From a virus (taxonomy: Duplodnaviria > Caudoviricetes), in the IMG/VR virus record IMGVR_UViG_3300014059_000006, positions 43,909-107,908 of that record: DNA of 64,000 nucleotides. One strand, given 5' to 3'. The position numbers and the translations under genes were made by a program. Under the pieces are notes generated by a model. The model saw nothing but the letters and a program-made list of their open reading frames with translations, had not been told where the DNA came from and ran no database searches. This document shows positions 21,201-50,858 of this stretch, in pieces. Each line of letters opens with the position of its first letter. The first letter of the stretch is position 1.

Positions 21201-24200
21201 GAAGAATTAGCTAGAGTAGAAAAAGTTCGTGATTATATAAGAAACAAGCTTACATACTACAATCAATTAAGAAAAGAACCGGGTATACGTTCTGTAAATT
21301 ATGAAAATATTATATACGGAAAAATCCAATTGTTAGAAACAAAATTAAAGTTTCTAACAAGTTTAATCAATAAAGTTAAAAAAGCGATTAGTCGTATGAT
21401 GGATGACTTACGTTATGTTACTGCACAACTAAGACAAAATGAAGCAGACATAATAAGCTATCCGTTAGATACCGAAGTTGATGCTGACTTAACCACAAAC
21501 AGAGAAAAACGTGCACCTTTACAACAAGAATTTACAAAACAAAAAAATAGAGTGAAGGCCCTTTCACGTACTGTAGAAAATACAAAAGATACAATTGAGT
21601 ATTTATATGATTTACTAGAGTGGGGAGAAAGAACTAATTCTGAAGAAATCGATACACCAATAGAAGAAATCAAAGCTCCAAAATTACAAACTCTAACAGA
21701 TAATATTTCCAACGAAGAAAAAGAAAAATTAATAGAATCTAAAGAAGAACAGATAAAAAAAATAGATGAGTTAATACAACAAAAAACTGACGAAGTTTTA
21801 GGTGCTGACGGGGTTATAGCCGAAATCGAAAAAGAAGAAAGCTCTGCAACTCCTAATCAAGCACGTCTACAAGTGTTGTACGAGAAGCGTGATAAGTTAC
21901 AAAAAGAAACTGCAGCACTCGCTACAAAAAAAGAAATAGTTAAGAATAGATTTGGAAAAGAAATAGTAAAGGAGGAAAAATATATAATTGATTCCCAAGA
22001 CCAAGTACAGAATACATTAAAAGAAGATTTAGATGTATCTTCTAAAATTGTAAAGAGTGTTTACCTATCAGGACTACATTATGTTCAAACAGAAGATGGT
22101 AAATATTATGTTGTTCCAAATGTGTCAGAAGGTTCTAATGGTATAACATCTAAAGAAGTGACACAAGCTGAAATTATAAAACCTTTCAGAACAAAAAAAG
22201 AATGGGACGAATTAGAAGTTAAAAAAGCTGATATAGAAAGAAGAAGACAAGAAGAATTAAACAATATAAAAAGTAAAGCAGAAATTGAAAAGTATTTTGC
22301 TAATAAATTTAAGAATGAATTCCCAAATGGAGTAAATGAAAGTGGTATTATTTCAATTCAAGAAGTATTAGAAAAATTACTTAATGAAGATGAACATAAA
22401 CTTATTGAACAGTATAGATATTCAAATATACTTAAAGATAAAATCAATGCTAAATATGATGCAGAATATGTAGATGCTGTTAAGAAAGGAGAGATGACTA
22501 AAGAGCAAGCTATGCAAGCTCTTAAAGAAGTAGGAAGAAAAGATAGCAAAGCTTATGCTGAACTAGCTGCTTTAGAAGCTAAACCTGCTGTTACACCTTC
22601 TGTTTCTGATAAGAAAGCTGAAATAGAAAAGAAAGCATACTTATTAAGTAAAGATTATAAAGATTTTGGTTGGCTAACAGAACAAGAAAAAAACGACTAT
22701 ACAGAATCTCAAAACAATTCAAAAAACAGAGAAGAAAGAGAAAAAGCCTATATAAAATTAAGAGAATTATATAAGTTAAAAGTAGATAAAGAGTTTATAG
22801 ATAGTATAGAAAAAGTACATTGGGTTAGAAATATTGAATCATTAATATCATTACTAGAAAAAGGAAAAAAAATACCTTTTGAAATATCAGCTGAGGGATA
22901 CTTGAATGAGTCTTTTAAAAGTGGATGGGGTAATGGGGTAGGCATTAAACTAAAAGGTGAAACATTAATTGCATCTAATGAAGATTTAAGAAGTGATAAC
23001 AAGTATGGTAGTATAGAAAACGGAGATTTTAGAAAATATTCATACGGAGACAATACATCCATAATATTAAATAAAGACACTTTTTTACCGCACAGATTAT
23101 TAGAATTTGAACAACGAGGTAAAAAATATCAAGGACACAATGAATTTTTATTAAAAAATAGTGAAATAGAAGCTATTGTTATTGACCCAACCAATGAAAA
23201 ATTAACAGAAGAGTTTAAATCAGAGGTTGAGAATATAGCTAGAAAATTTGGAATACCTATAATTGTAAATACTAAATACGATGCTGAACTAGCTGCTTCA
23301 GAAGGCACTTCTACTCAAGCTCCTACAACAGCTACTGTTTCTAATATAGAAGCTAAAAAAGAAGATATAGAAAAAAGAAGACAAGAAATAATATCTAAAT
23401 ATAATATAGAGTTTAAGGAAATAGCTAGAAAACAATACGATAAGGTTTCTAAAAAATATATTGATGGTATATCTACTCAAATATGGAGTAATGGTAAATT
23501 AATAGCAGAATATGAAACAAAAATAGAAGCAGAAAATGAACTAAATAGAAAAATAGATGCTTTAATAAATAACACTATTGATTCAAAAATTTCATTAGGA
23601 GATAATATTTTCATAGAAGGGATAACTGTTGATGGTAATACCTTTTCTGTTTTAAATACTTCTGAAAGAATGGTAACTATTGTTGACATAGGAGGTGTCA
23701 AAGTGCCCTTTTATTTAACAACAGGTTTGGGAGGTAAAAATTTAACACCTGCTTGGTATCCTATGTTTGGATATTCTCCTAGTGGATGGTTAAATAAAAC
23801 TGATGGGAAAGATATGGAGTCTTTTTACTCTAGGATTATAGGAAAAGAAGCATCAGATGTATTAAAAAAAGTATCTGAAAAATTAAATAATAAATTAGGG
23901 GTAACTCCTAACTCTATAATTGAATCAGGGATAGTAAGTAAACAACAAACACAAGAAGCTGTAAATTCAGTTTTAAATTTTACTCCTGCTGAAAATCAAA
24001 AAATAGATGCTTCTGTTGATTATAAAATAGAACTTGCAAAACTTGAAAATAATATTAAAAGTCTTGGAGAAGAAATCAATGCTAAATATGATGCAGAACT
24101 AAAAGCATTAAAACAACAATCTAATACACCTACTCAATCTGAAATAGAAGCTAAAAAAGCTGATATAGAAAGAAGAAGACAAGAAGAATTAAATCAACAA

Positions 24201-26984
24201 ACTGATGCTGGGTATTCAACTATTGCATTAGATTATCTATTTACAGGTGGAAGAGATGTAATTCTGTCTACTGATTATTTATTACAAGCATTAGTTGGTG
24301 GATTTACAAGTGCTGCTAAAGAAATAAATGATATTAGAAATAAATATGCTAATAAATTAGGTAATATTAGAGATGATATTAATTCTGATGTTTATAATCA
24401 AATGATGGGAGAAATTAGAAATGTTATAAGTAAAACTTATAATGATTCTAAAGCAAATGAAATATTTGATAAAATACTCAAAAATGCAACAGGATTTACA
24501 AATAGAGAAGGTAATCAAATAAGTATTGAGTTAGATAAATTAAATGAACAAAATGAATCTAAAATCAACGCTAAATATGATGCAGAACTAGCTGCTTTAG
24601 AAGAAGTAACACCTACAACAGAAACAAACCCTAATGTAGAAGCTAAAAAAGCTGATACAGAAAGAAGAAGACAGGAAGAATTAAATAAATATAGGAATGA
24701 TGCCATTGCTTTAGAAAATGCTAAAACAGAAGACGAAGCTATTGAAGCAATTAAATTGACAACTAAAGAAGATAATAAATGGAAAGCACTTTCCGCTGCC
24801 GAAAATATTATTGGAAAAAGTGGATTTAATGCTTTATTTCAACAAGATTGGAAAAAACAAACAAAAATACTTGCAGATGAAATTAATAGGATTCAAGCTA
24901 ATTTTATTGATAAAATAAATGCTAAATATGATGTAGAATTAGTTGCTTTAGAGACACCTATTTCTAAAATAGATTCTCCAGAAGTAGTTCAATTAAAATC
25001 GGCTAAGAAAAGTTTAACACTTGAAATAGACACTTTAATGGAAGAACCTTCTACAGAAGTGTTAGATGTACCCTCTAACGAAAATAATGTCGTACAAGGG
25101 TTGTCAGGTAGTGAAATTAACAATTTGGCAACATCTATTATAAACTCTCCTAATGTTTTCTTTGCAGGAATGGTTTTTAGAACTGCCGGTGAAGATATGG
25201 TTAAACGTGGGGACACATTTACATTAATAAGTGAACGTTCACCGATTGGAATATTGCGTGCAAAAATTCGTAATGCAATTATGCGGCGTTCTATAGGGTC
25301 TAGTAAAACTCTAAGTGATATAGGAATTCATATTACAATACAAAAAGATAAGGATGAGTTTCATCCCGAAGGAGAAACAGTTCGTGAACGTCAATTCTTT
25401 TTAGATAATAAAAACAAACCATCTCATCCTATCGTTGCTGTACTAACTGATATTAACGGCGAAACTTTATATTTTGATGAAGATGGAGACAAAACAACAA
25501 AAGAAAAAGGAACACCTATTGTACAACAGATTTTTGAAGTGGACGTTGATACTGCTTCACGAACATTACAAGGACGTAAAGAAGACCGTATTCAAGAACG
25601 TATACGTGTCCTAACTTTACAGAACTTATTCAGTGGTATAGAAATAACTCCTGAAGATACAAAACGTATAACTGACGAGGTGAATGAAGAATTTAGAATG
25701 CTTTCTGAATTAAAATCTCACATAAGAAATACAGATGAAAAAATAACTGTAAATAACGCTTCAATATCAAGAGGATTTACAGAAAAAAATAATATTGTTC
25801 TTGTACCAAATGACGCATTGGTTGATAAAGAAAACGCAAAGGTGAGTGTAGAAACTGTTACAATTAATAATGGTGGAACAAACGTAACAAAGGGTATTGT
25901 ATATTACAACGGGTTTCCTATGTTCATGCCAAAGTTAAGTGAGGGTTCTTTGTTTGATACAATTAAAACAATTCTTCAAACAAGAGTTCCCTATGATAGT
26001 TTCGAACGTTCTTCTCGTCAGGCATTTTTGAGAAAAATTTTATATCGTCGTACAGAAGAACATCCTAAAGCGGTGACAAAAGTTTCTTATGATTACGAAA
26101 ATGAAAAAATAGTGGTAATGTCGGGAGAACAGATTCTTTCATTAGAAGAACTTATGAGTAGAAATCTTTCATTAAACGTTGATAAACAATTGTTTGATGA
26201 AAATCAATCTTTTGTTGAATATGTAGCCAAACCGGAATTTAACGACAGGGATGAGAGAATGCCTAATATGAAATTAGTAGCTCTTCCTGCAGTTCCTTAC
26301 CAAGATTATATAAAATCTAAAGGATATGTTTTTATGACAGAGTCAGAACTAGAGTCTCAGACTAAAAAATTAGGACCAACCCCTAGATACAATATTGTAT
26401 TTGGAATGAATCCTTCTGAAACAATGTCTAAAATAACTCCTGTTTCTACAGAAACATCTGCACCTAATCCCAATGATTTATTGTCTGTAGATGACTTGTT
26501 AAGTGAAGAAACTACTCCTGAAGTGGGAACCGCTCTTCAAAACGCATTTGCTGTATTTACCGCACCGTCTACTCCTGCCCCAATAAAACAGTTTAATGTG
26601 GGAGATAAATTTAAACTACTGTCTAAATCTCTTTCTCAGGAAAAAGGTTCACCAGTGTATGTTGAAATAAAATTAATTGAAGAAATTCCTAATACAGCAG
26701 AAGATGTAAAATTCTCAGTGGAGCAAACATACGAAGGAGTTTCTACAATGAGAACCTACAAAAGTAGTACTATCGAACAAGGACTGTCTGACCCACTTGC
26801 TGAAAAATTAGAAAGTGCGGAAACATTAAACGTGTTTGATATGTTCACAGAAACAACCCCTATGGATGAAATTATGGATAGAGAATTAATAAAATCAGGT
26901 GTATTAAAAAAAGGAACTACAATGGAAGATTTGATAAATACATTAATAAGTCGTAATATTGTAGAAAAAATTTGTAAATTTTAA
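18219..26984 (+). CDS. Giant virion cargo protein (vRNAP-associated) with an internal cassette array
   Basis: 2921 aa with a Gly/Ala-rich membrane-like N-terminal segment, an EGVEEGAQY motif and coiled coils. It lies directly upstream of the vRNAP. Confidence 0.75.
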   Translation: MPDNFSSFANKVAPVTSTPSRLGTEGLVAWKDTNASRYTNDPNWKMLGYDMNRNNDYAYDVAQTSGQWASSAFNRFLHPLKTSFVEGFRYDKTAKELLFSGSVAEDEGLREYLKKSEELSYLYPTYDNPNSSDEGFFSYFNAGARNKWSTLLESSGFMVGTAGAGIAQSIVLGLVTGGAGTVASLAKTADATGKAYRLSKLASAYKQMDKVNDLWKMSKVGKLVGASPTLQAIDGLTDIAKARTLSQYAKASGKFLGNSAIRFQATSSEAMLEAIEGSEHFKKQQIEQFELKNGREATKEEKDDIENYAADVFSARYRANLGVLSVTNLVQDLSFFNTYKYISKLGKSGAIAEEAAKKWNWNAKAGIAMKHSALPLKERALFEIKAVGNSFFKNAFMEGVEEGAQYAIGKSTDDYYTKKYNKESASFMDSMARGISSTFLDKEGKESFWSGIMMGGLFSTIGKGAKTVHGMATGKGAKIDAMVSEQMTNYNQAHKNLIETFKTEQVLSAEAENGTLNHVNNTLVEEALENNDLDKAKELRLQSLRNSVKTAKEVGKLDLLKKSLSEYGELQDDVFREKFGVTSKQTNKEIVNETLREIEEIEKTVDAVNERYGNPYDGYDNIDPITAADKRAEQHNLYKGYEEAKMTVIDNVETLKESKKNLSKISEWFTGQGVVVEDVLLELVPEQITLGGVEFDSAVLARDEKIENLGRQFADLEKLKQTSTNTSEIIRVTQTQAELLKERDIYVNLNNNPDSLGAILDYFNFQIGKSKKGLPIDATDSTEFKTSLEENIKGLRDNLEKSKNALEALDALEKPKVFEALAKDYAKAYDKRYGQIISDLDANEQEAKAATEEVVPEETPEETIGTPVTPESPVETATPIEPEEGPMFPIPPYTPKESTKPQPKHVLLQKIVQVEKELDEITHVTNSLLSTKVRLTNLLQKEIAELKPVLEKLARTVVDSNTMYFISNYEELRDAEIRLQADVDKLTDELNIVSEELARVEKVRDYIRNKLTYYNQLRKEPGIRSVNYENIIYGKIQLLETKLKFLTSLINKVKKAISRMMDDLRYVTAQLRQNEADIISYPLDTEVDADLTTNREKRAPLQQEFTKQKNRVKALSRTVENTKDTIEYLYDLLEWGERTNSEEIDTPIEEIKAPKLQTLTDNISNEEKEKLIESKEEQIKKIDELIQQKTDEVLGADGVIAEIEKEESSATPNQARLQVLYEKRDKLQKETAALATKKEIVKNRFGKEIVKEEKYIIDSQDQVQNTLKEDLDVSSKIVKSVYLSGLHYVQTEDGKYYVVPNVSEGSNGITSKEVTQAEIIKPFRTKKEWDELEVKKADIERRRQEELNNIKSKAEIEKYFANKFKNEFPNGVNESGIISIQEVLEKLLNEDEHKLIEQYRYSNILKDKINAKYDAEYVDAVKKGEMTKEQAMQALKEVGRKDSKAYAELAALEAKPAVTPSVSDKKAEIEKKAYLLSKDYKDFGWLTEQEKNDYTESQNNSKNREEREKAYIKLRELYKLKVDKEFIDSIEKVHWVRNIESLISLLEKGKKIPFEISAEGYLNESFKSGWGNGVGIKLKGETLIASNEDLRSDNKYGSIENGDFRKYSYGDNTSIILNKDTFLPHRLLEFEQRGKKYQGHNEFLLKNSEIEAIVIDPTNEKLTEEFKSEVENIARKFGIPIIVNTKYDAELAASEGTSTQAPTTATVSNIEAKKEDIEKRRQEIISKYNIEFKEIARKQYDKVSKKYIDGISTQIWSNGKLIAEYETKIEAENELNRKIDALINNTIDSKISLGDNIFIEGITVDGNTFSVLNTSERMVTIVDIGGVKVPFYLTTGLGGKNLTPAWYPMFGYSPSGWLNKTDGKDMESFYSRIIGKEASDVLKKVSEKLNNKLGVTPNSIIESGIVSKQQTQEAVNSVLNFTPAENQKIDASVDYKIELAKLENNIKSLGEEINAKYDAELKALKQQSNTPTQSEIEAKKADIERRRQEELNQQTDAGYSTIALDYLFTGGRDVILSTDYLLQALVGGFTSAAKEINDIRNKYANKLGNIRDDINSDVYNQMMGEIRNVISKTYNDSKANEIFDKILKNATGFTNREGNQISIELDKLNEQNESKINAKYDAELAALEEVTPTTETNPNVEAKKADTERRRQEELNKYRNDAIALENAKTEDEAIEAIKLTTKEDNKWKALSAAENIIGKSGFNALFQQDWKKQTKILADEINRIQANFIDKINAKYDVELVALETPISKIDSPEVVQLKSAKKSLTLEIDTLMEEPSTEVLDVPSNENNVVQGLSGSEINNLATSIINSPNVFFAGMVFRTAGEDMVKRGDTFTLISERSPIGILRAKIRNAIMRRSIGSSKTLSDIGIHITIQKDKDEFHPEGETVRERQFFLDNKNKPSHPIVAVLTDINGETLYFDEDGDKTTKEKGTPIVQQIFEVDVDTASRTLQGRKEDRIQERIRVLTLQNLFSGIEITPEDTKRITDEVNEEFRMLSELKSHIRNTDEKITVNNASISRGFTEKNNIVLVPNDALVDKENAKVSVETVTINNGGTNVTKGIVYYNGFPMFMPKLSEGSLFDTIKTILQTRVPYDSFERSSRQAFLRKILYRRTEEHPKAVTKVSYDYENEKIVVMSGEQILSLEELMSRNLSLNVDKQLFDENQSFVEYVAKPEFNDRDERMPNMKLVALPAVPYQDYIKSKGYVFMTESELESQTKKLGPTPRYNIVFGMNPSETMSKITPVSTETSAPNPNDLLSVDDLLSEETTPEVGTALQNAFAVFTAPSTPAPIKQFNVGDKFKLLSKSLSQEKGSPVYVEIKLIEEIPNTAEDVKFSVEQTYEGVSTMRTYKSSTIEQGLSDPLAEKLESAETLNVFDMFTETTPMDEIMDRELIKSGVLKKGTTMEDLINTLISRNIVEKICKF
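22221..24953 (+). repeat. Array of five variable inserts, each bounded by KKADIERRRQEEL and INAKYDAELAALE repeats
   Basis: Left repeats start near 22221, 22611, 23355, 24153 and 24645. Right repeats lie near 22441/22551, 23271, 24072, 24561 and 24912. A 41-nt stretch is identical at 22221 and 24153. Confidence 0.9.
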
Positions 26985-26985
26985 A

Positions 26986-29900
26986 ATGGCGAATAATTGC
27001 TTATATAAATATAATGGTGTTTTATACACCGAACCAGAGTTTAAACAATTACTAAACAGTAATTTATTACAGTTTGTATATTCTTTGGATAGTGCGGATA
27101 TAAATAATATTTTAGACCCTGCTTTCCAATTTATGGAACAAGACGAAACATCTTGGATTAATACCATTTTTAAAACGTCATATCCAAAAGAAATACAAGA
27201 CCGTGTAAAGTTCTTATATACCGTTGTTAACTCTAACAAATGGGGGACATGGGGACCGGCAGGTATAACTTTGTATAAAAGTTCTGCTCGTGGTACAGGA
27301 TATCACGAAGCATGGCACGAATTTTCCCAAATGTTCTTGACAAAGGATGAAAAGATTTCTTTATATAAAGAAGCGATTGTAAACATTCCTGCACTTAAAG
27401 ATTTAAATTATAAAAAACTAAACGACCTTCGTCAAATAGAAGAACATTTAGCAGACGATTTTATGAAGTACATGTTGAATGATGAATTATTTGGAGATAG
27501 TTTATTAGTAAACCGTCAACCAGTTCGTAATTCAATTTTCAGAATTATTTTAAATTTCTTAAAAGGATTGTTTGGGGTAAACAAACAAAACGAAGATGTA
27601 TTTTTAAATCGTCTAAATACTTTATATTCTAATTTAAGAAATGGAGAGTTAGATAATTATCAATTTTCTGTAGACAATATTTTATTCAACGAACAACTAC
27701 ATAGAAAAATAGAAGGGTTTGATAACTTGTCTGCAGTGTTGAAAAATAAAAGCGAAGTGGGAACTATGATGAAAGTTATGGGACACTTTGACGCGTTGAT
27801 TACTGAAGTGATAAAAAACAAACAAGTGGAATTAACCAAATTGTTTGCAGACCCTAAACTTAAAGTGTATGTGTACACACACGTAAAAAATAGACTTAAA
27901 CAAGAATTAAAAACAGTTCGTCTATCTCCAGAAGCCGTTGAGATGCGTGAATTTATTTTAGCTAATTTTGGAGAGTTTGTGAAAGCTCATGATGAAAAAG
28001 GTTCTTTAAAATTTGCTATCAGTGATGTTAGTGATATCGAAAACGTTATAAAAATATTAGATTCTAATGACGATATAAACAATGATAATGAAGAAGATGA
28101 TGACCATGTAGATAATTCATCTTCTGGTCGTGACAAAGCTTGGGATAAATCAGGAAATGAAGAGGATTCGAAAGACATTGCTTCTAAGATAATTCGTTTT
28201 ATGGTGGCATCCTTACATAACCGTAGATTTGCTACCCCAGAAGAACAGAAACAAGGTAAAAAGAAATTAGAAGAATATCGTCAAAGTCGTCTACAAGGTG
28301 TAGAAGATAATGAAACAATGTTAGCTATAAATGACGAGGTAGACAAATTAGAAGAAGAGAATAATTATAGATATATTTCCGACGCATTAGGGTTAAAAGA
28401 ACTTGTTAATTTTAACACTGTATGGAATATGTTACAAACCGAATTACAAGGGATGGATAACTATTCTGATATGTATAGAAAAATTGAAGCATTAAGTGTA
28501 GATAAGGTTTATCTTTTGGACTTGTTAAAACTCCTTCCTTCTCCGAACAAAGAAGTTTATACACAAGACGAGTCACATATTTCAAATCGTTTTAGAACTG
28601 ACTTCATGCGTGTAAAAAATCCTATACTGATTAACAGTATGGTGGTGGAAAGAAACGAAGAGGGAGATGTTAAACAAGTTCGTATTGACTTATTGTCTGC
28701 TAATAAATTAGGTATCAAAACTGTACGTGAAACATTTTATCAAAAATGGCTTGAGACAAAATCGGCTAAAGAAAACTTTGTTACAGAAAAAGATGATGAG
28801 ATAATTTTTGATTTTGATAAGTTTGCCGAAACATTTTATGGAAAAGATGGAGATGAGAATTTTAAAAATATTTATTTATTTAAAAATGCCGAAAGTCTAA
28901 GTGAAGAATTTGGAGAAGGAAAGATAGATAAAATTTATAACAATCGTATAACATTTCTAAATGCTTTTGGTTTTATATTTTCAGACCAAACTGTAAAAAC
29001 CCAAGAGTTCAAAGATTTTATAATGAATCGTGTATTCATGGAAGACCAGTTAGGAAAATATTTATTTAATGATATTGCTAATCTTATAGAATATAGAAAA
29101 AAAGAAGGTGCATTTATAATAGATAATTTAGCTCCCGGTACTTCAAAAAGTGATAGAGAAAAAGCTTTAGAAACTCTTCCTATAATAAAAAACCCTTTAG
29201 ATTTTTTCAGAACGAAACGTGTATTTCGTTATTCAGATAGAAGTATAAAAAACCCTGTCATACTAAACGGAAACTCTAACAAGATGGACGAGTTGTATAA
29301 TTTTGAAATTCTACATTCTGGACAATACTTCAACGAAGCTACATACACAGCAACACAAAAAATTCAATTTGAAAACTCTATTTATAATACATTCTTTATG
29401 TATTTAAACGGACTGAACGATGCTGTTAAATACCCCACATATCAATCTTTAGTTGCGGAAGGAAGTCCTTACGAATATAATTATAACATAGACCGTAATC
29501 CACATTTAAGAAGTTCTATATGGTTTAATAGTATGTTCGAATTAGATGTACCAGAAGGTACTCCTCGTTACGGAAAACGAAGAATCCAACGTATAAAAAA
29601 ACAAGGACTTGTAAACAAAACAAACCATGTAACAGTGGATTTTGTAAACTTGAGTGGTATGTCTATAAACGACCGTACCGCCAATAATTTTGAAGGACAA
29701 AATACAGTTAAACTTGAAACATTGGATAGAATGATATCTTCCATTAGTTCTTTATTAACAACAGGTACTTCTGAATTAATGCGTCATGCTGATAAATCTA
29801 TGGCTTATGGTATTAGACCTACATCCATGTTTATCAACGGTTCTTATACAGGAGATAAAAATATATTTTTCGAATTAAAATCTGACTTGACAAGTGGTGA

Positions 29901-32900
29901 TTTTGTATCTACTATTTTCAACACTGATAAAGAAACTAACAATTTACATAATGTATTTGCAGGATATTTAAAATCCGAAATGGAACGTATTTTTAAAGTG
30001 CGTATGTTAGAGAAATCTGGAAATAATGAGTTCATAGATAAAAAGATTTCTGGTACAGAACGTAAACGTTTACAAGGATTTATTTTATTTGACAAACTTC
30101 TTTCTGTAGATGTTAAAAATGCATTATATGAAAAAATTGAACAAATAGTTAATTCTAAAGAAGCAAATTTATATGCCGAAAAAGGTAATTACCAAGGAGG
30201 ATTAGAAGTTTTACTAGATGAAATGATTTCAACTCCTGTATTTGTAGAAGAAATTAATAAAAATGTTTCTCGTCTTAATCCTGAAATAACTTTAAGTATT
30301 GCCACATATCTAGACCAATCTACGCAAGATTATGAAAAGCGTATGATTGAAAAAGGATATATTAAAAATACATTAGGTAAGTTTCTTCCTTCGTCTTTGT
30401 CGGTTGATGATACTTCTGTTATAAGAACTTTTATTTTAAATCAGTTTATACATAACGTAGAGCAATCTAAATTGATTTATGGAGACCCTGCGTTTTACAC
30501 TGCACCATTTAAACGTCTTCCGATGTTTACTTCTACAGGAGCGATGCCAAACGTAAGTGCAGAACATATTGCTCAAATGAATAATGATGTTAATCTAAAT
30601 GCATACACAAAAGCATTAGGATATAATTCTATTCCTTTTTCAGACAAAGTTAAAAGTACTGTACTAAGTGATGTTGAGTTAGATACAAAAGTTTCTGATA
30701 GATGGAAAAAAGCATTTGAAATTTTAAAAATGACTCCAGAAGCAATTGAAAAATTAACTTCAGACTATTCTGATGTTAACGAAGCGGATGCTCAGGGTAT
30801 GGCAACTATTGATTTTTATAGAAGTTTTAAAAAGTCAATAGGATTTTGGTACGATTCTCACGAGAATGCGTATAACAAAATGGTGGAATACGAAAAGAGT
30901 AAAAAAGAATTTGGTAAAAATCCTACAAAAAATCAAATAAAACAATTAGAAGGGTTACGTTTAACTGCAGAAGAAGAAGGACTATTCCCGCCTATTAAGT
31001 TGGGATATGGTGGTCCATTAGTAAATGAACACTTATATGCTCCGACATATCATAAGTTTTCTATTTACCCAATTCTTCCTTCTATGACCGAAGAAAATAA
31101 TAACTTGAATAAAATCAACAGAAAACTTCTAAGAGAAGGAATAAGTTATTTAACATTTGAGTCGGCAAGTAAAGTGGCAAATACAGGAAAGAATGGAAAA
31201 TTCCAACCTTTATATTCTGATGTTGCTACAAGAACATTAAATGATGCTAAATTTCATCCTACAGTTACGTTATTAAAATATTATAAAGAACAATTACAAA
31301 TAGAACCAAAAGATGAAAGAAGTATGACTTTTGGTACACAGTTCCGTAAACTTTTGTTTTCTAACTTATATGAACACGGATATCCTACAGATTTCGTTTC
31401 TACCTCTCCTGAATCAGATTGGGATAGAATGTCTGAAGAAGAACGAATTAATGCATCAGAGATACATAAGAATCATCAGGGATACCTTAAAGTGTTAAAT
31501 AATGTTGCCGAAATTGAATTAGAAAAGTTATTAGAAGAAATTGGAGGAACACAAAATTCAAACGGTGAAATCGTAATAAATGATTTTAGGAAATTAAAAG
31601 ACATGGTGATTAACGAAGCTAAAAAGAAAGAAGCTCCTGATTCACTAGAATATTTTTTCCAAATCAACGAAGATGGGTCATTAAAATACCCTATTGAAAC
31701 TTCTAAAGATAAAAAAATCATACAAGATATTCTTTTATCTCTTGTAAACAATCGTCTTGTTAGATTAAAAATCAATGGTGCAAATCTTGTTCAAGCTGCA
31801 CAAACCGGTCATGAACGTTATGATGGAAAAACCTATTCTGACACATTAGAAGGATACAGGGTTGAAACAACTCCTGAAGGTAAGTTTATATTACGTCCTA
31901 TGGAAGTGGAAGTTTCATTTAACAACTCTTATAGAGGTACATTAAAACTTATTCATCCTGACGGTAAAGTTGTTAAAACAGTTAAACGTTTGAATGAAGC
32001 TATGCGTAATGCTGAGTGGTACGAAACCCATAAAGATTATTTTTCTTTAGTTGGATATAGGATTCCTACACAAAGTACAAACTCAATTGCGTACATGGGA
32101 ATTAAACAATTTCTTCCTAAAAACTCTATGAACTTAATTGTACTTCCTTCTGAAATTACAAAAATTGCAGGTTCGGATTTTGATATTGACAAGATGTCTG
32201 TAATACGTCCATACTTTAATAAACGTGGAGAAATACTTAGACCATCTGAATTAAATCTGTCACGTGCAGAACTGAAAGAAAATATTGCAGAACTAGAAGA
32301 AGAATTGACAGATTTAAGAAATTCTAAAAAACGTTTTAAAGGTGATGTAAATAAAGCTCTATCAAAAATACAAGACCAAACCGCAACAGTTTCTGATTGG
32401 GCAATTTATAAATATAACACTGAAGAAACATCTCAGAAATTAGAAGTTCTATTAGACGAAGAAGAAGAAATTTTAAATCTTATAGATAATAGTTATGATT
32501 CTGATATGGCAGAACTATTCCAAAAATCAGGACTAGTACAACAAACAGAAAAAAATGAAGAACAAGATACATCTTCTTTAGAAGCAAAACTTAACTATGT
32601 ACAGAAACAAATAGATAAGATTTCAGAATTTGCCGAAACAATGAACTCTTATGTAGATGATTATAATGCGCTTCCTGAAGAAACTATTTCAGCAATTGAA
32701 ACAGAACTAGAAGGATATATGGAATGGTTTGCTCAATTGGATGAGAAACGTATAAAATTAGAAGATTTAAAAGATGCGTACGCACATCAAAAAGAAGCAC
32801 AATTTAATAATTTATTAGACATTGCGAAAAACTCCATAAGTAGAGAAGATAAATTTATAGACTTGGTTACACCTAACTCTGTAGATATAGTAAAGAAACA

Positions 32901-35364
32901 ATTAGCCGACCCTATTAAAGAATGGTTAACTGTGTCAGGACAAGAAAGTTTTGCTCAAGAAAGTAATACTACAGATATTTTTAATCCTGCATATGAAGAC
33001 GAGGTATATGAATCTTTCTTACAAGGAAAATCTACATTAGGAATCGCAGCACTTGCTGGACCATTGTCACAAATTTTCCAACGTACCGGTGCTTATGTAA
33101 ACCCTGTGTATCATTTGAATAAACAACAGTATGACACCGTTGTATTGTTAAATACAAACAAAAGAGAAATTAGTAGAAGGGGTGAAACAATAACAGTTTA
33201 TGACTTAGCATCTAGATACGATAGTGAAGGAAAAATATTAAAATCAGAACTCATTGCTCAGTATATAAATGCATATGTGGATATCGCGAAAGAACCTTTT
33301 GTGTTCTATATGAACGCAGGTATTAACGTGGCACCTGTTATGATGTATATGACACATTTAGGAGTACCTGCAAAACAATCAGCTTACTTGGTGAATCAAC
33401 CTTCTATACGTGATTATATTAAACGTAAATCTGTTCAGGCATCTTATACTAACAGATATACAAACGAAATGTCTAAAAAAGAAGAATACACAAAAATGCA
33501 TTCTTTAATAGAAACATTTAATAAATTTGTAATAGGTGACGAAAACATAAAAGACATTGGAGAGTATATAACAATCAATCCTAAAAACAACCAAATACGT
33601 AAAATAGATTTTGGTAGAATTTATGAAGAGTTTAATACATATTTAAAAAATAATGCTCCACAATATGAAAAACTTCTTTCACAAGAAAACCTTGAAAAAA
33701 ATATAAAAGGAGAACTATCCGAAGAAGAAAGTAAAAATACATCTATGGCTGCATTTTTACAATACACAATGTTGGAAAATCAGTCAGCGTCTTTAAGAGA
33801 AATAAATGATGTATTGAAGTCTGATACGACAATGTCAAAAAGTACAACTTCTGCCGTTCAACATACTAAAAAAGTTCAACAATATAAAAACAATAAAATA
33901 CAAGGGATACTTCCTGCAGAAGTAATATCTAAAATATTATCTTCTACAGAAATAACTCCATATGTTGTTCAACCTAAAATTGCAAGTATGTATTCAGGAA
34001 TAGAAAAAGTTCAAAACCATCCCGTAATTCAACAACACTTGGATGAACTTTTAAATATGGGTAGAACTAAAAAATCTCCGGTAATACAAGAGAAAATCAT
34101 TAAAGATTATTTTAGTGATTTAAATTCCTTTATTTTACAAAATCACGGAGTTCAATTTAATGAAACTAAAAATACTCCTAGAACATTAGATTCTTTATGG
34201 CCCTTGATGATTAATGATAAATCAAAACGTCTAAAGAAAAATAAAGAACTGTATAAAAAAGAAATAAAGAATATTGTTACACGTTTAAATGATTTACATG
34301 CTAAATACAATGGGGTAAATTCACCTATAAATCTTCGTACAAGATATCAAATCTTTAACGGATTAAAGGTTTATAATAGTGAGGAAACAAATTTACGTTC
34401 TATTGCTTGGCAAGGTGAACCATTGAAAAAAGATTTAATCAATATGCTTTCAGAAGAATGGACAAAATTAGCAAACTTGAACGACCCTAAATTTGCGGAT
34501 ATAAAAGAATTTATGATTGACTTAGCTAAGGTGGTGTTTTTAACTCATGGAGAAACTCGTTCGTCTAAATCATTTTTTGCTCTAGTTCCTTCTGAATTAC
34601 ACACATCGTTTATGCTACCCTTTATTGAAGATTTCCTTTCTGAAATGAATGTCGTAGGGTCAAACTATTACCAATTGTTTACAAAATTTTTCAATGATGA
34701 TTTCATGGGAAATAATAAACAGTATTTCAAAGGTAGAGGAACTGACAAAATAAATGATGGAAGATTTAAACAGTACAGAAGGGATTCTTCTTTTGCTAGA
34801 GATTATATTTTAACTGCACATCCTAAAGTAGAAAAAATTAAACGTGAATTTGTTTCCGACCCTATGGAAAGTGGAGACGAAAGAAATGATAATGAAACAG
34901 TAAGTAAGATTAATTTCAAACCAACTCCGGCAGAACAAGATTTAATGTCCGAGGTGGAATCTATCCTTTCTCAATCAGACATGTCAAAATTTGAACCACA
35001 AGTAAGAGAAACATCTATGGATGAAAAATATGAATACTTCAAAAGTTTAAATAAAAATACCCTGACAAAAAAAGAATTAACAGGTGTGAATAATGTTATT
35101 GACGTATTACAAAAATATAAAGTGATACAACAAGATAAATTGAGGGCCAGTATACCTGTCACTCCGACGTTTAACCCTGACTTTTTCCAATCGGTCGACA
35201 GTTTGTTCCAAACTGATTTCTCAGTGGATTTGGCAATGTCAAAAATAAAAGTTAACTTTGAAGAGTATAAAGACGCTTTAAAGGAAGAAGGAATTAATTC
35301 TATAGAAGAATTGGAATCCTATCCAGATAAAAATAATTTTGTTTTAAAAATTTGTAAATTATAA
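26986..35364 (+). CDS. Virion-packaged DNA-dependent RNA polymerase (crAss-type) with N-terminal zincin-like domain
   Basis: Catalytic GSDFDIDK (DFDIDK at 32176-32193) preceded by GYRIPTQ. Also has ADAQG, an N-terminal YHEAWH...EEHLAD zincin motif and AYVDIAKEP. Confidence 0.92.
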   Translation: MANNCLYKYNGVLYTEPEFKQLLNSNLLQFVYSLDSADINNILDPAFQFMEQDETSWINTIFKTSYPKEIQDRVKFLYTVVNSNKWGTWGPAGITLYKSSARGTGYHEAWHEFSQMFLTKDEKISLYKEAIVNIPALKDLNYKKLNDLRQIEEHLADDFMKYMLNDELFGDSLLVNRQPVRNSIFRIILNFLKGLFGVNKQNEDVFLNRLNTLYSNLRNGELDNYQFSVDNILFNEQLHRKIEGFDNLSAVLKNKSEVGTMMKVMGHFDALITEVIKNKQVELTKLFADPKLKVYVYTHVKNRLKQELKTVRLSPEAVEMREFILANFGEFVKAHDEKGSLKFAISDVSDIENVIKILDSNDDINNDNEEDDDHVDNSSSGRDKAWDKSGNEEDSKDIASKIIRFMVASLHNRRFATPEEQKQGKKKLEEYRQSRLQGVEDNETMLAINDEVDKLEEENNYRYISDALGLKELVNFNTVWNMLQTELQGMDNYSDMYRKIEALSVDKVYLLDLLKLLPSPNKEVYTQDESHISNRFRTDFMRVKNPILINSMVVERNEEGDVKQVRIDLLSANKLGIKTVRETFYQKWLETKSAKENFVTEKDDEIIFDFDKFAETFYGKDGDENFKNIYLFKNAESLSEEFGEGKIDKIYNNRITFLNAFGFIFSDQTVKTQEFKDFIMNRVFMEDQLGKYLFNDIANLIEYRKKEGAFIIDNLAPGTSKSDREKALETLPIIKNPLDFFRTKRVFRYSDRSIKNPVILNGNSNKMDELYNFEILHSGQYFNEATYTATQKIQFENSIYNTFFMYLNGLNDAVKYPTYQSLVAEGSPYEYNYNIDRNPHLRSSIWFNSMFELDVPEGTPRYGKRRIQRIKKQGLVNKTNHVTVDFVNLSGMSINDRTANNFEGQNTVKLETLDRMISSISSLLTTGTSELMRHADKSMAYGIRPTSMFINGSYTGDKNIFFELKSDLTSGDFVSTIFNTDKETNNLHNVFAGYLKSEMERIFKVRMLEKSGNNEFIDKKISGTERKRLQGFILFDKLLSVDVKNALYEKIEQIVNSKEANLYAEKGNYQGGLEVLLDEMISTPVFVEEINKNVSRLNPEITLSIATYLDQSTQDYEKRMIEKGYIKNTLGKFLPSSLSVDDTSVIRTFILNQFIHNVEQSKLIYGDPAFYTAPFKRLPMFTSTGAMPNVSAEHIAQMNNDVNLNAYTKALGYNSIPFSDKVKSTVLSDVELDTKVSDRWKKAFEILKMTPEAIEKLTSDYSDVNEADAQGMATIDFYRSFKKSIGFWYDSHENAYNKMVEYEKSKKEFGKNPTKNQIKQLEGLRLTAEEEGLFPPIKLGYGGPLVNEHLYAPTYHKFSIYPILPSMTEENNNLNKINRKLLREGISYLTFESASKVANTGKNGKFQPLYSDVATRTLNDAKFHPTVTLLKYYKEQLQIEPKDERSMTFGTQFRKLLFSNLYEHGYPTDFVSTSPESDWDRMSEEERINASEIHKNHQGYLKVLNNVAEIELEKLLEEIGGTQNSNGEIVINDFRKLKDMVINEAKKKEAPDSLEYFFQINEDGSLKYPIETSKDKKIIQDILLSLVNNRLVRLKINGANLVQAAQTGHERYDGKTYSDTLEGYRVETTPEGKFILRPMEVEVSFNNSYRGTLKLIHPDGKVVKTVKRLNEAMRNAEWYETHKDYFSLVGYRIPTQSTNSIAYMGIKQFLPKNSMNLIVLPSEITKIAGSDFDIDKMSVIRPYFNKRGEILRPSELNLSRAELKENIAELEEELTDLRNSKKRFKGDVNKALSKIQDQTATVSDWAIYKYNTEETSQKLEVLLDEEEEILNLIDNSYDSDMAELFQKSGLVQQTEKNEEQDTSSLEAKLNYVQKQIDKISEFAETMNSYVDDYNALPEETISAIETELEGYMEWFAQLDEKRIKLEDLKDAYAHQKEAQFNNLLDIAKNSISREDKFIDLVTPNSVDIVKKQLADPIKEWLTVSGQESFAQESNTTDIFNPAYEDEVYESFLQGKSTLGIAALAGPLSQIFQRTGAYVNPVYHLNKQQYDTVVLLNTNKREISRRGETITVYDLASRYDSEGKILKSELIAQYINAYVDIAKEPFVFYMNAGINVAPVMMYMTHLGVPAKQSAYLVNQPSIRDYIKRKSVQASYTNRYTNEMSKKEEYTKMHSLIETFNKFVIGDENIKDIGEYITINPKNNQIRKIDFGRIYEEFNTYLKNNAPQYEKLLSQENLEKNIKGELSEEESKNTSMAAFLQYTMLENQSASLREINDVLKSDTTMSKSTTSAVQHTKKVQQYKNNKIQGILPAEVISKILSSTEITPYVVQPKIASMYSGIEKVQNHPVIQQHLDELLNMGRTKKSPVIQEKIIKDYFSDLNSFILQNHGVQFNETKNTPRTLDSLWPLMINDKSKRLKKNKELYKKEIKNIVTRLNDLHAKYNGVNSPINLRTRYQIFNGLKVYNSEETNLRSIAWQGEPLKKDLINMLSEEWTKLANLNDPKFADIKEFMIDLAKVVFLTHGETRSSKSFFALVPSELHTSFMLPFIEDFLSEMNVVGSNYYQLFTKFFNDDFMGNNKQYFKGRGTDKINDGRFKQYRRDSSFARDYILTAHPKVEKIKREFVSDPMESGDERNDNETVSKINFKPTPAEQDLMSEVESILSQSDMSKFEPQVRETSMDEKYEYFKSLNKNTLTKKELTGVNNVIDVLQKYKVIQQDKLRASIPVTPTFNPDFFQSVDSLFQTDFSVDLAMSKIKVNFEEYKDALKEEGINSIEELESYPDKNNFVLKICKL

Positions 35365-35367
35365 AAA

Positions 35368-35844
35368 ATGTTAGACTCAAAAATAATCGAACTCCTAAAT
35401 TATAGGATTGAACAAGAACAACTTTCTTCTCGTATTTATGAACAAATGTCAATGTTCTTAGGGAATAAGGGATATGTAAACACTGCGAAACTGTATGCAA
35501 AGTATGCATCAGAAGAATTAAGTCATGCTGAATGGGCTAAAACCTATCTTCTTTCTTATAACATAGAACCAGAACTACATCCCCTTCCTGCACCTACAAC
35601 AGAGTATTCAACATTACAGGAGGTGTTAGATTTAACATTAGAACATGAAATGGATATTACTAAACAATGTAACGAGTTAGCAAGAATTGCACAAGAAATG
35701 GCATACTTCACATGTTTTGATTTAGCTCTTAAATACTGTAGAGAACAAGTGGAAGAAATAGATAAGGCATATACATTGAAAGATATGTATGCACTTTCTA
35801 ATAATGACTTGTTATTTGACCACGCTGTAGAAGACCTTATATAA
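35368..35844 (+). CDS. ftn: Non-heme ferritin
   Basis: 158 aa with the ferroxidase-centre pattern E..SS..Y, EE..HA, EHE..IT and EQ.EE. Confidence 0.88.
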   Translation: MLDSKIIELLNYRIEQEQLSSRIYEQMSMFLGNKGYVNTAKLYAKYASEELSHAEWAKTYLLSYNIEPELHPLPAPTTEYSTLQEVLDLTLEHEMDITKQCNELARIAQEMAYFTCFDLALKYCREQVEEIDKAYTLKDMYALSNNDLLFDHAVEDLI

Positions 35845-36620
35845 TGAAGTTTTGTCCACTCGTTTCCCTTCCTGATTGGATTGAATTAGAAAAAATTCAT
35901 GGGAAAGCTCGCGCTGCAAATTTATGGGTGGCGTTTGACGGTTATCCTCCAAAATATTTATACACGGATTTACGTACAATACCGGTTGATACAAAACATA
36001 GTAGATATAAAATACTTAAATCAGCATTTGGTAGTGACGGATTAGTTGAAGATTTGATTAAAGGATTTTCTATAGGACTGGGAAAAGGAAAAGGAGAACT
36101 GTATTATCCTACAATTAATGAAGTGAAGAAATATTTTGCAGATAATCGTGATTCTACAGAAAATTATATTAAAACTATTTTAGAGAGATTTCCCGAGGTT
36201 TCAGCAAAAGGACTTGCTCGTGTGTTAAATACAGTTGTTAATGAAACAGGAGACATGTATATGGTGTCTAGAGGATGGATTAATAATGGGTCGTTAGTGG
36301 GAAAAGGAATTGTAGAAAAAGAATTTTATGGACGTAATTTGGCAACAATGAAAAAACTTGCTGAATTATATCCTCAACGATTTGAAATAAAAGATTCTAA
36401 AAAGAACAAGTACTCACACTTTGTCACAATAAATGAACCGGTTTTACAACAACAATTATTCAATAGAATTGAAATACTAACTATAAATAATGAAATACTT
36501 CAGCCTAAGGTTGAAGAAATTGAAACAACATTAGAAACGAACATACAAAGCGATAATGATACATTTTTTGTAAAAAATGCTGATAAAATAGATAGTGGTG
36601 AAATAATTATAGAATGTTAA
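35844..36620 (+). CDS. Putative cargo protein
   Basis: 258 aa starting MKFCP....W..L....G...A..LW, an N-terminal pattern typical of crAss-like cargo proteins, and ending in Cys. Confidence 0.55.
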   Translation: MKFCPLVSLPDWIELEKIHGKARAANLWVAFDGYPPKYLYTDLRTIPVDTKHSRYKILKSAFGSDGLVEDLIKGFSIGLGKGKGELYYPTINEVKKYFADNRDSTENYIKTILERFPEVSAKGLARVLNTVVNETGDMYMVSRGWINNGSLVGKGIVEKEFYGRNLATMKKLAELYPQRFEIKDSKKNKYSHFVTINEPVLQQQLFNRIEILTINNEILQPKVEEIETTLETNIQSDNDTFFVKNADKIDSGEIIIEC

Positions 36621-36642
36621 AAATAAAACAAAACAAAATAAA

Positions 36643-39600
36643 ATGAATACTTGCGAAAGAAAAGTGGTGTCCACTGATGAAACTGGTTTTAGTTATGAAG
36701 AAACTATAGCTCAGTATGAAGAAAGAAAACGCCTTTTAGTAGAAGCTAATAAAGAAACAACATTACAAAACAATATTGACAGTATTCGTCAAGATAATGT
36801 AAAGGACACTATATTAACTACAATATTTGATAACATCACTAAAATATCTTCTAAAGGATTAAAGGACGAAAGTGTACGTAAACTTGCCGAATCAAATGAA
36901 GATTTTCAAGATACAATAGAAATGTTACGTAAATCCAACCTTAACATTAAAAATAAGGTAATTAACAAGGCACGTTTCTTATTTAATACGGCAACCACTT
37001 ATACAAAAGTGGGGGAATATTATGAAAAAAGAATAAATGAAATCCTATCTTTAGTAGATAATGGACAAATGGAAGGTTCAATTGCTTTTGAAGAAATGAG
37101 TCAAATGGCTTCTTTTTATGAGAGTATGTCAAAATTAGCAAATACAATTGAAAAAGATTTGTTAGCGTTGGGGTTATCTCCTGAAGAACCTATTTTTTCA
37201 GAGTTCAAACGTGTAGACACAATAAATGAAAATATAAACATTAAACGAAGAAACTTTAACGTTAAATACTATATAGGAGATTTGTTTAGTAATATTGACG
37301 AAAACAATGTAGAAGAACGATTTAAAGATTATACTAAGAGTATAAAGTTCCAGTTGGAACGTGCTGAAAAAAAAGGACGTAAATTAGAAGCAAATCGTCT
37401 TAAAGAATTATTATCTCGTTTACAAACTATTAAACCATCGAAAGAAAATTTAGAAGCGGTGTTTAAAGGAGAAAGAGATGATATGAATAAATTAGATTTT
37501 TGGTTTAATGCTCTCCTTAGAAGTTCTGATACTGTTGTATCTTCATTTCGTCTTAAACTGACAAACTTGGTAGCTAAAGTAAAAGCCAACAGTGTTATGA
37601 AGGCTCCAGCATTTACGAAAGCTTTTGAAGACTATGTAGGAGAAACAGGCGAAACAAGAACCAATTTAAAAAATCTTTACAAAGGTGTTTATACACAATA
37701 TAAAACATACAAATACAATTTTGCCACTAAAGAAATAGAGGCTACAGATGCAGTGCGTTTAAATGTATGGTGGGATGAATCTGCATATTCTCTTGCTGTA
37801 GCAACATGGCAAAAAGAAATAGAAGAATTTGAAGAAGGTTCAGAAGCAAAACAAAAGAAACGCAGAGAGTATTGGGATTGGCTTGCACAAAATGTTCAAC
37901 AAGCCTATACTGATGAAGTTACAGAGGCGTATGATGGAATGAGTGAGGAAGCAAAAGAAGTTCTTCAAAATGCTAATGAAGAAGTGAGTTTTGCACGTAT
38001 GACTCTTGACGAATATTATACAATAGAAAACGAAGCTGCATACGATAGAGCAATTCATATACAAAAAAATCTACGTTATGAAAATGATATCGATGGAAAT
38101 AAAAAAGGACCAAAAGAATTAAAAATAGCTAAAGAAATAAATGAGTTTTATTTAAAACGTAAAGAATTTTACATTCCTATTTCAGAAGATGAATTAGAAG
38201 AGGCTACCAAAGAGGCACAAAGAAAAAAAGATAAAGATTTCTCTAAATTAGAAATCTTAATTAGTAAGATGCAACAACGTGGAGATTCTCAAGAAAAAAT
38301 AAATAGTGTTACAAAACTATGGAAAAAGAAAAATGAAAGACGAGTTGTAGATAAATCTTATACAGAACGTGTACAAGCAATTAACGACCGTCTGTCAGAA
38401 ATACAAAAAGAATTCTTTAACCCTGGCGAAAAGGAAACTATAAATGAATTATGGGATAAAATAAGAAACACTGTAAGAAAATACAGAGATGATAATGGAA
38501 AAATACAAGGAGAATATTTAACCGAAGGTGAAATAAATAATATTGTCGCATGGAGACAAGAAATTGATTCTCTAAAAATGGAAGCCGTTGGTGTAAGTGG
38601 TATGTCCATAAACGATAAACGTAATTTCACTTCATTAATCGATAGATACAGTATTCCTAAATTTAACAAAGAAACTGATAAATACTATGCCAATTATATT
38701 TCAAAGGTGGTTGATTTAATTAAAGCTAAGGGAACTGTTGAAGAAGCTAGATTTGCAGAGTATTATAAAAAAGAACATCAGAAAGCAAACGAAAATAAAA
38801 AGAATGCCAATCTGTCTATGACAGAAGAAGAAATTGCATATTACAAAACTCTCAAAGAAGAAAGAAATAGTTTATATGCGGAATTAGAAACATTACAGAG
38901 TAAAGAAACCACAGAGAATTATGCAAATGAATATCAACGTCAATTAGATTTATTTATTGCAAGAGAACGTGAAAAAACCGGAGCAACCGGTATACTAACA
39001 GAAGAAATAAAATCTTTTTATAATACACAATTTAAAGAACTTTCTCCTTGGTACAAAACAAACCACACTAAAGTACAGAAGTTCAATAAAGAAAGTATGA
39101 GATGGCAAGAAGTTGTTGAACCTATTTATATATGGCAAGAAATCCTACCTCGTGATAAGGCTATGATAAAAACATTTCCTGCGTATCATTACTATGAACG
39201 TAAATTCAAACCTGAATATGTAAACGATAAACAAGAAATGAATCCGTTTGATAATGAAAAAGCATTACCAAAACGAGGAGGAATATTCGATAAAAAAGAC
39301 GAGTTTTTTAAAAAAGAAAACGAAAACAAACCTAAACAAAAACTTTGGAAATTCTATTTTGACACATACGTAGAAGCTCAAAAAGATATAGAATCTAGTT
39401 TACGTCCTGGTACAAGACTTCCTGCATTCGAAAAAGAAGGGATAGATAGAATAACAGAAAAAGGATTTAGTCATATATGGGAGGGAATAAAAAGACAATT
39501 TGGTAGAACAGAATTAGATACAGACGAAGGGATAGGATTAAAAGAAAATGATTTTAAAAAAATGTTCAATGTTATTCCTGTATTACATATGGGAAATGTA

Positions 39601-41312: not shown

Positions 41313-41966
41313 ATGAATCTATACAAATATACACCATATGCAATAGCGTTACTTTTGTTAACGCTATTGGTGCTTTTATTCGGGTCCACTGCTAATTTAA
41401 GAAAACAAGTGGATTCTTTACAAACAGAAAAAGACCTAATTAATCAACAGTTTAAATCAGAAAAAAATAAGAATGGTGAACTTATTACATTACAAGATAT
41501 AATTGTAACAAACGATAAAAAAATTATGGATTCATTGGTGCAAGAAATAAATTGGGGAAAACAAAAAATTAAAAACCCCAAGACAATAATAAAAGAAACA
41601 TTAGTGACAAAAATTGATTCTCTTTATGTTCCCTTCACTGATACACTTATAACTATTGTAGGGGCAAAATATGAATTTAAAGATTCCACTCCCTTTTATA
41701 ATCTCTCAGGAACGGTGGAATCAAAAGGAATTAAATTTAATACCATTTCATTTATAAATGAAAATACATACGTAATAAACAAAAAAAGATATAATGTATT
41801 TTATACTAAACCTGTTTTATACGTAAACACCAAAAATCCATACACAACCGTTACTGGATTAAAATCTATAACGTTAGAAAAACAACCTAATAAACTATTA
41901 AAATTTTTAACAGTATCTGCCTCTTTTGCTTTAGGAGCTTACGTCGGTATACAAATTTCAAAATAA
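41313..41966 (+). CDS. Membrane-anchored protein (spanin-like candidate)
   Basis: N-terminal TM helix, short coiled coil and C-terminal hydrophobic helix. The function is inferred. Confidence 0.45.
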   Translation: MNLYKYTPYAIALLLLTLLVLLFGSTANLRKQVDSLQTEKDLINQQFKSEKNKNGELITLQDIIVTNDKKIMDSLVQEINWGKQKIKNPKTIIKETLVTKIDSLYVPFTDTLITIVGAKYEFKDSTPFYNLSGTVESKGIKFNTISFINENTYVINKKRYNVFYTKPVLYVNTKNPYTTVTGLKSITLEKQPNKLLKFLTVSASFALGAYVGIQISK

Positions 41967-49677: not shown

Positions 49678-50084
49678 TGGAACAATATTATACCCCCGAA
49701 ATAGAAGATTTTAGAGTTGGTTACGAATATGAAAGATTAAACGATAAAACTTGGAATAAGGAAACATTAGAGAGTCACATGCTTTATACACCAAATATTG
49801 GTGAGGCGTGTGACTCAGAAATAACTGAGATTTTACGTGATTTACATGATAATAAAATTAGAGTCCCCTATCTCACAAAAGAACAAATAAAAGCGGAGGG
49901 GTGGGAGTTAAGAACCGAAGGTTATTCAAGAAATTTTTATGAAAAAGGTGAAGAATCACTTTTAGTTCATCATGTTGGACATTGGATTATAATTACAGAC
50001 CTTTCGGAAGAACAAATTTATAAAGGTGATTGCAAATCTATTAATGAATTTAGAACTATAATGAAATTATTAAATATAAAATGA
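49677..50084 (+). CDS. Hypothetical protein
   Basis: 135-aa coupled ORF with no recognised catalytic motif. Confidence 0.6.
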   Translation: MEQYYTPEIEDFRVGYEYERLNDKTWNKETLESHMLYTPNIGEACDSEITEILRDLHDNKIRVPYLTKEQIKAEGWELRTEGYSRNFYEKGEESLLVHHVGHWIIITDLSEEQIYKGDCKSINEFRTIMKLLNIK

Positions 50085-50515: not shown

Positions 50516-50521
50516 AATAAT

Positions 50522-50857: not shown

Positions 50858-50858
50858 T

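Follow-up and report, generated by a model that had tools for sequence, protein, structure and literature searches.

Cargo genes and their cysteines

We analyzed a 64,000-nucleotide window of the Caudoviricetes virus record IMGVR_UViG_3300014059_000006 (positions 43,909 to 107,908 of that record). It encodes four proteins, here called chain members A to D, that include a virion RNA polymerase (vRNAP, protein B) and whose only cysteines lie at their ends. The open reading frames (ORFs) of the window were called and their cysteines recounted by program, which gave a mean of 0.87% cysteine over 33 ORFs. Proteins A to D together hold 7508 residues and six cysteines, compared to about 65 expected at the window mean. 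Counted back from the C terminus as −1, −2 and so on, the layout in gene order is −3 in A, 5 and −3 in B, 4 and −1 in C, and 4 in D, with no internal cysteine in any of them. Uniform placement would put all six cysteines within five residues of an end with a probability of about 2e-14. Four of the six codons are TGT and two are TGC. The first-pass annotation of this DNA had described six near-terminal cysteines in four otherwise cysteine-free proteins, and the recount reproduced every one of its numbers. The interval it reported, 26973-36654, runs from the first to the last cysteine codon; the chain genes span 18219-41256. The cysteine frequency in A to D is far under the mean of the window proteome, as it is in cysteine-depleted ejection proteins of the Schitoviridae type. 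These data show that the cysteine pattern is real and non-random.

In protein B, HEAWH is found at residue 107 and the catalytic DFDID motif at residue 1731. Its BLASTP alignment with gp66 (g066) of Cellulophaga phage phi14:2 (E 2e-26) spans the catalytic GSDFDIDKM, and tblastn with B gave matches in 65 crass-like phage records. A phmmer search of PDB sequences with B returned nothing at E 0.001, so the tie between B and the solved vRNAP structure rests on pairwise comparison. D matches phi14:2 g065 and crAss001 gp49 by position. Neither PHROGs nor Pfam holds a family for A, B, C, D or the cysteine-free proteins that flank them. The vRNAP homology and the two crass tail ring proteins encoded upstream assign the window to Crassvirales. 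By these comparisons the window derives from a divergent member of the order, and A-B-(C)-D is its predicted RNA-polymerase-associated cargo block. Homology and synteny with phi14:2 and crAss001 suggest that A to D are packaged in the virion and ejected.

A ferritin-like ORF interrupts the block between B and C. It matches Pfam PF00210 (E 1.5e-16), PF02915 (Rubrerythrin, E 1.2e-5) and phrog_16594, and of 50,697 phage records only 2 contain a similar gene. The gene is not found in the two nearest relatives of the window, loci L001 and L003. Its three internal cysteines and its absence from these relatives place it outside the cysteine pattern, and it is an inserted gene rather than a chain member. 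Comparable small cysteine-bearing interlopers are located at junctions in L005, L063, L067 and L088. The first-pass annotation had proposed a linear chain in gene order. The comparison of terminal cysteines strongly supports this topology, but strict gene adjacency does not hold, because the ferritin-like ORF, which that annotation had overlooked, lies at the B-C junction.

Table 1. Positions of the chain genes and of other features in the window. Cysteines are numbered from the N terminus, with the distance from the C terminus as a negative number.
Feature	Position	Strand	Length (aa)	Cysteines and remarks
Chain member A, first link	18219..26984	+	2921	No N-terminal Cys; sole Cys 2919 (−3; TGT, 26973-26975)
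Chain member B, vRNAP	26986..35364	+	2792	Only Cys5 (TGC, 26998-27000) and Cys2790 (−3; TGT, 35353-35355)
Chain member C, small link	35844..36620	+	258	Cys4 (TGT, 35853-35855) and Cys258 (−1, last residue; TGT, 36615-36617)
Chain member D, last link	36643..41256	+	1537	Sole Cys4 (TGC, 36652-36654); no C-terminal Cys
Ferritin-like ORF	35368..35844	+	158	Exactly at the vRNAP-C junction; internal Cys 101, 116, 124
Cys-free protein upstream of chain	15477..18215	+	912	No terminal Cys
Cys-free protein directly after chain	41313..41966	+	217	Relatives at 45% identity, also Cys-free; no family match
CrAss_Ring_2 (PF25702)	6747-7412			E 2.5e-17; upstream of cargo genes
CrAss_Ring_1 (PF24228)	7412-8269			E 2.6e-4, under the curated cut-off; upstream of cargo genes
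Two Cys-rich proteins	1192-3129 and 3159-4772	+		28 and 20 Cys (3.7-4.3%); no Pfam family
Protein with Cys cluster	13601-15475	+	624	Cys 225, 234, 260, 263
Collagen-repeat protein	41970-47297	+	1775	Triple-helix repeats (PF01391, E 2e-146, 13 stretches)
Three long ORFs in collagen-repeat region	42059-45823	−		Probably repeat artefacts
Two GIY-YIG/NUMOD homing-endonuclease-like genes	47340-48014 and 55423-56190	+		
Methyltransferase and glycosyltransferase cluster	48007-52047	+		PF13578, PF00535 twice, PF01075 weak

Terminal cysteines in relatives and at gene junctions

Homologues of B at 23-36% identity have a cysteine in their last 10 residues in every case (120/120). About 80 of the 120 have one at positions 3-5, and most have no other. 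The homologues that lack the N-terminal cysteine are long forms beginning like A. Cys2790 of B is an invariant column across 37 homologues, as are the catalytic residues, and Cys2919 of A is one of only five invariant columns in a comparison with homologues from 26 lineages. The nearest relatives, L001 and L003, repeat the full pattern (−3 in A, 4-5 and −1 in B, 3 and −1 in C, 3 in D). Their D orthologues are 31-32% identical to D and have their sole cysteine at position 3. A 52% identical relative of C, P0122, has cysteines at residues 5 and 280 of 281. The prediction that the terminal cysteines would be kept in orthologues across Crassvirales is thus borne out by the two invariant columns and by the complete set of vRNAP homologues.

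When viral contigs were searched with the 258-aa C alone or with one vRNAP core, no relatives were detected. An alignment-seeded scan of the same contigs yielded 80 further loci, and the locus statistics were computed on 76 non-redundant crAss-like loci. Their chain proteins comprise 507,295 residues with 27 internal cysteines (0.005%). The N-terminal cysteine lies at positions 3-6 in all 144 cases, and nearly all C-terminal cysteines lie at −1 to −9, mostly at −1 to −4. The cysteines facing each other across a junction are present or missing together: both are found in 139 adjacent ORF pairs, neither in 78, and 13 pairs are discordant (Fisher p 1e-45, a statistic that ignores kinship among the loci). 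The discordant pairs are accounted for by small cysteine-bearing interlopers, genes outside the chain, or a cysteine at −19. All 38 complete chains read [-C]([CC])n[C-]. The absence of an N-terminal cysteine from the first protein and of a C-terminal cysteine from the last, pointed out earlier for the window, therefore holds in every one of them. Chains have two (n = 6), three (n = 23) or four (n = 9) members, and five members are visible in L054. Three chains have a first visible member with an N-terminal cysteine; two of these start at a contig end (L031, L063), and in the third the upstream cysteine is at −19 (L070). These data show that the cysteine rule is conserved in every crAss-like lineage sampled here.

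Some chain domains are encoded in separate genes in one phage and in a single gene in another. The first split and fused labels on the tree were defined by the cysteines themselves; they were discarded and replaced by a cysteine-independent classification, in which a hidden Markov model of the A N-terminal domain (residues 60-640) was combined with the DFDxD motif. The A domain and DFDxD reside in different ORFs in 56 loci, where cysteines flank 58 of 58 junctions on both sides. In contrast, none of the 15 proteins that carry both in one ORF has the cysteine pair. The stretch that separates the A domain from the motif is 2,000-2,800 residues long; it contains no cysteine in nine of these fused proteins and a single one in six. 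In the fused proteins whose junction could be placed (P0005, P0044, P0048), this single cysteine is more than 400 residues from the junction. A second fusion involves the small link. The last chain protein of L036 aligns with residues 55-196 of C over its residues 11-153 and with D over its residues 1695-1987, and Cys3 is the only cysteine it has. By these alignments, C and D are fused in L036 and the cysteine pair is absent there. The expectation that splits would carry cysteine pairs and fusions would lack them is upheld by the 58/58 to 0/15 contrast. On a FastTree tree of the vRNAP core, there are at least two changes in the A-B state and at least eight in the count of small links.

The first-pass annotation had also remarked on the KICK(F/L) ending common to A and B. 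The resemblance is real and includes 15 identical bases at 26967-26980 and 35347-35360, which are the only exact matches to this stretch in the window. When up to two mismatches were allowed, the window gave 9 matches versus 10 expected by chance, and the motif was rejected as a general intergenic signal. Duplication of a C-terminal region was also rejected as the source of the KICK tails, since A and B align over their last eight residues only. The 15-base identity follows from the common peptide and an AT-rich codon bias. Lysine-flanked C-terminal endings like KICK recur in other lineages, and the shared ending therefore reflects a recurrent lysine context rather than a specific common signal. 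A lysine follows the C-terminal cysteine directly in 41 of 101 cases, a strong enrichment (p 1e-16); by general thiol chemistry, a lysine neighbor should favor the reactive thiolate. Around the N-terminal cysteine, small residues precede and proline, isoleucine or alanine follows. The comparison of termini among relatives found no conserved residue at either end besides the cysteine.

The arrangement in crAss001 separates the cysteine signal from the DNA. In this phage (L087, crAss001 46119-64723), gp47 lies on the strand opposite to gp50 and gp49 and converges with them. Its only cysteine is nonetheless at −3, gp50 has cysteines at 5 and −9, and gp49 has one at 5. Because gp47 keeps its C-terminal cysteine despite this orientation, the linking order is set by the proteins rather than by which genes are adjacent. 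Relatives use both cysteine codons (TGT 244, TGC 42), and the spacing is variable. Together with the lack of further copies of the 15-base motif, these observations show that the cysteine signal resides in the proteins and not in the DNA.

Neighboring genes

Three proteins near the chain, of 163, 912 and 217 aa, have no cysteine at all. The orthologues of the 912-aa protein in L001 and L003 are likewise cysteine-free, and its position corresponds to that of crAss001 gp45/gp46. This synteny makes it a probable cargo or ejection protein that is free (untethered). The 624-aa protein lies in an otherwise cysteine-free stretch and is kept in L001 and L003 (44-58% identity); its four clustered cysteines suggest a small metal-binding site. 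Two cysteine-rich proteins are encoded just upstream of the ring proteins, in sharp contrast to the cysteine-free cargo block.

Beyond the chain, the collagen-repeat protein is probably a fiber. GC content is raised in the repeat region (0.36-0.39). The methyltransferase and glycosyltransferase cluster lies downstream of the fiber gene. The window holds two homing-endonuclease-like genes (Table 1), and in the relative L088 a GIY-YIG gene (4199-4867) is located at a chain junction.

Possible linkage of the cargo proteins

Two cultured crassviruses have the same gene order and cysteine rule as the window. The cysteines of phi14:2 g067-g066-g065 are at 1797, at 3 and 2179, and at 3; those of Bacteroides phage crAss001 gp47-gp50-gp49 are at 2339, at 5 and 2404, and at 5. 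According to their GenBank annotation, the three phi14:2 proteins were found in virions by tandem mass spectrometry, and the crAss001 cargo proteins were detected in virions by mass spectrometry (PMC10172136). The window differs from both phages in having four links instead of three, owing to the additional cysteine-tipped 258-aa protein, and in its ferritin-like interloper. The word 'cysteine' does not occur in PMC10172136 or in the phi14:2 preprint, and the cargo cysteines go unmentioned there. We found no description of the cysteine rule in Crassvirales in the open-access literature. What is known already is that ejection proteins can be purged of cysteine and that one head-to-tail disulfide has been solved in another phage family.

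That disulfide joins Cys1715 of gp27 to Cys5 of gp26 in the cryo-electron microscopy structure of cyanopodophage A4 (Anabaena phage A-4L; PNAS 2025, PMC12002296). Our recount of the A-4L genome showed that these are the only cysteines of the 1717-aa and 1114-aa proteins, which are encoded by adjacent genes. The two positions, −3 and then 5, are those of the A-B junction in the window. A4 belongs to the Saffermanviridae and has no vRNAP, and it has one bond between two proteins compared to a chain of two to five; its authors treated the bond as a single case and did not generalize it (PMC12002296). The best BLASTP match between A4 gp26/gp27 and the window proteins had E 0.22, and no ORF of any locus matched at 1e-3. 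Thus, the window may work like A4 by analogy, without membership by detectable descent. The second comparison is with the ejected proteins of the Schitoviridae (N4 gp50, DEV gp71-gp73), where the suppression of cysteine has been attributed to envelope passage (PMC11445570). The giant ejected proteins of these phages, vRNAP included, are almost cysteine-free, as in crassviruses. However, the N4-like proteins lack terminal cysteines, and their vRNAP is one polypeptide rather than several cysteine-tipped proteins.

End-to-end intermolecular disulfides are the most likely explanation of the pattern, and we regard them as probable from the sequences and from the A4 analogy. Chain proteins, like other ejected phage proteins, have been purged of cysteine, except for one retained a few residues inside every end that points to a neighboring chain protein. 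In the window, Cys2919 of A would pair with Cys5 of B, Cys2790 of B with Cys4 of C, and Cys258 of C with Cys4 of D. Separately translated proteins would thereby form a linear thread of about 7,500 residues with the topology of the fused polyproteins of other crassviruses and of the single giant vRNAP of N4-like phages. Bonds 3-6 residues from the N terminus and 1-9 residues from the C terminus are so near both ends that the joint would make only a small bump that could get through a narrow channel. With such links, co-packaging would be held at 1:1, each protein would trail its predecessor through the portal and tail, and thiol reductases of the cytoplasm would separate the linked proteins. 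The sequence pattern is that expected of linear consecutive links: 2(n−1) cysteines for n proteins, bare outer ends, and a pair gained or lost wherever a junction is split or fused. We infer both the bond in crassviruses and the reductive release. Ejection as a train is suggested by the strict closeness of the cysteines to the termini, which would make the joint nearly linear. The complete proposal is that two to five cargo proteins, including the vRNAP, are joined end to end by near-terminal disulfides into a thread of 5,000-10,000 residues, which is packed once per copy, goes through portal and tail ahead of the DNA as one linear polymer and is cut into working enzymes by thiol reductases of the host, and that a split is tolerated only with cysteines at both new ends. 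We advance it tentatively and consider it possible, though less secure than the bonds themselves.

The fused crassvirus proteins bear on this proposal. In some crassviruses the three proteins are joined as one polyprotein, which is assumed to be cleaved (phi14:2 vRNAP paper). These polyproteins have the same domains in the same order and no cysteine where the split forms have their termini, which suggests that one continuous thread, rather than a set of cleaved products, is the functional state.

Several observations weigh against the disulfide-linked thread. With a reducing cytoplasm in Bacteroidota and no oxygen in the gut, the setting offers no obvious oxidant or moment for forming the bonds. 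A few chain proteins have one extra internal cysteine (Cys1334 of crAss001 gp50, Cys373 in L003). In L088 (4877-6789), a 341-aa chain candidate has Cys3 and a cysteine at −17, and the ORF after it has no N-terminal cysteine, nor any other in the 294 residues that are visible. Neither of the two proteins encoded after the closest relative of C in L088 resembles D in sequence. L088 may be an exception to the rule; its contig is 6.8 kb, too short to resolve the arrangement. Since the loci are related, independent events are fewer than the raw counts suggest. The FastTree tree, which is approximate and whose states were called from the cysteines, resolves only about 10 changes in architecture. Finally, sequence cannot separate consecutive pairing from other pairings with equal cysteine numbers. 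A complex prediction for the C-terminal 220 residues of A and the N-terminal 520 residues of B, made with our own alignments, gave a median score of 0.22 against a mark of 0.32 and bears neither for nor against binding.

Of the competing explanations, the one that survives best, although we judge it unlikely, is that the disulfides are staples. They would hold folded, docked cargo in the capsid in the manner of the A4 pre-ejectosome and would be broken or rearranged before ejection, with no train. The A4 authors describe a C-terminal helix that is docked in a cleft and then stabilized (PMC12002296), and termini created by a gene split adjoin anyway. Any point of an interface would do for a staple, yet the cysteines hug the termini (all 144 N-terminal ones at positions 3-6) across 500,000 cysteine-purged residues, a location that fits the need for a linear topology. 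The staple would also have to be opened inside the virion, where no reductant is known.

A metal bridge through zinc, copper(I) or iron, for which the first-pass annotation had left room, could join the same consecutive cysteine pairs and fall apart by dilution or chelation in the cell. It would work in the anoxic gut with no oxidant, and acidic residues, frequent at −4 to −8 of the C-terminal cysteine, offer possible extra ligands. Each terminus supplies one thiol, however, with no conserved histidine or second cysteine nearby. The sole solved example, A4, is a disulfide, and crAss001 virions contain disulfides in the tail and portal vertex (PMC10172136). We consider metal bridging improbable.

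Non-consecutive pairing appears more improbable still. Middle proteins might close into rings while the first pairs with the last, or the cysteines might bond to capsid, portal or tail proteins. Such schemes require the same 2(n−1) cysteines, and for chains of three or more members sequence alone is blind to the difference. Two-member chains, however, can pair only head to tail, as A4 does. At every split or fusion, precisely the two cysteines of that junction are gained or lost, which is one event if pairing is consecutive and a rewiring if it is a ring, and a ring could traverse the channel only as a hairpin. Bonds to other virion proteins leave the cysteine-free N terminus of the first protein and C terminus of the last unexplained. 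Equally improbable are another role for a terminal cysteine (acylation, a catalytic or sensing thiol, a packaging-factor tag) or a by-product of nucleotide signals at the junctions: the two KICK ends have 15 bases in common, but there is no lipobox, signal peptide or conserved motif apart from the cysteine, strict pairing across junctions with bare outer ends is unexpected for a tag, and a DNA-level cause is excluded by the opposite-strand gp47, the mixed codons, the variable spacing and the 15-base motif found nowhere else in the window.

In the human gut, no phages are more abundant than crassviruses. The way in which they bring several proteins of 150-300 kDa through a narrow tail before the DNA is a question raised in the crAss001 atlas (PMC10172136) and in a 2026 N4 paper. 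A covalent tether, if true, would account for the packaging of the giant proteins at equal copy number and their delivery in a set order, for the encoding of the same domains in anything from one polyprotein gene to five genes, and for the tolerance of cysteine at the ends alone. For annotation, the cysteine rule is a simple sequence signature of crassvirus cargo proteins and of their joining order, and it also works for genes on opposite strands.

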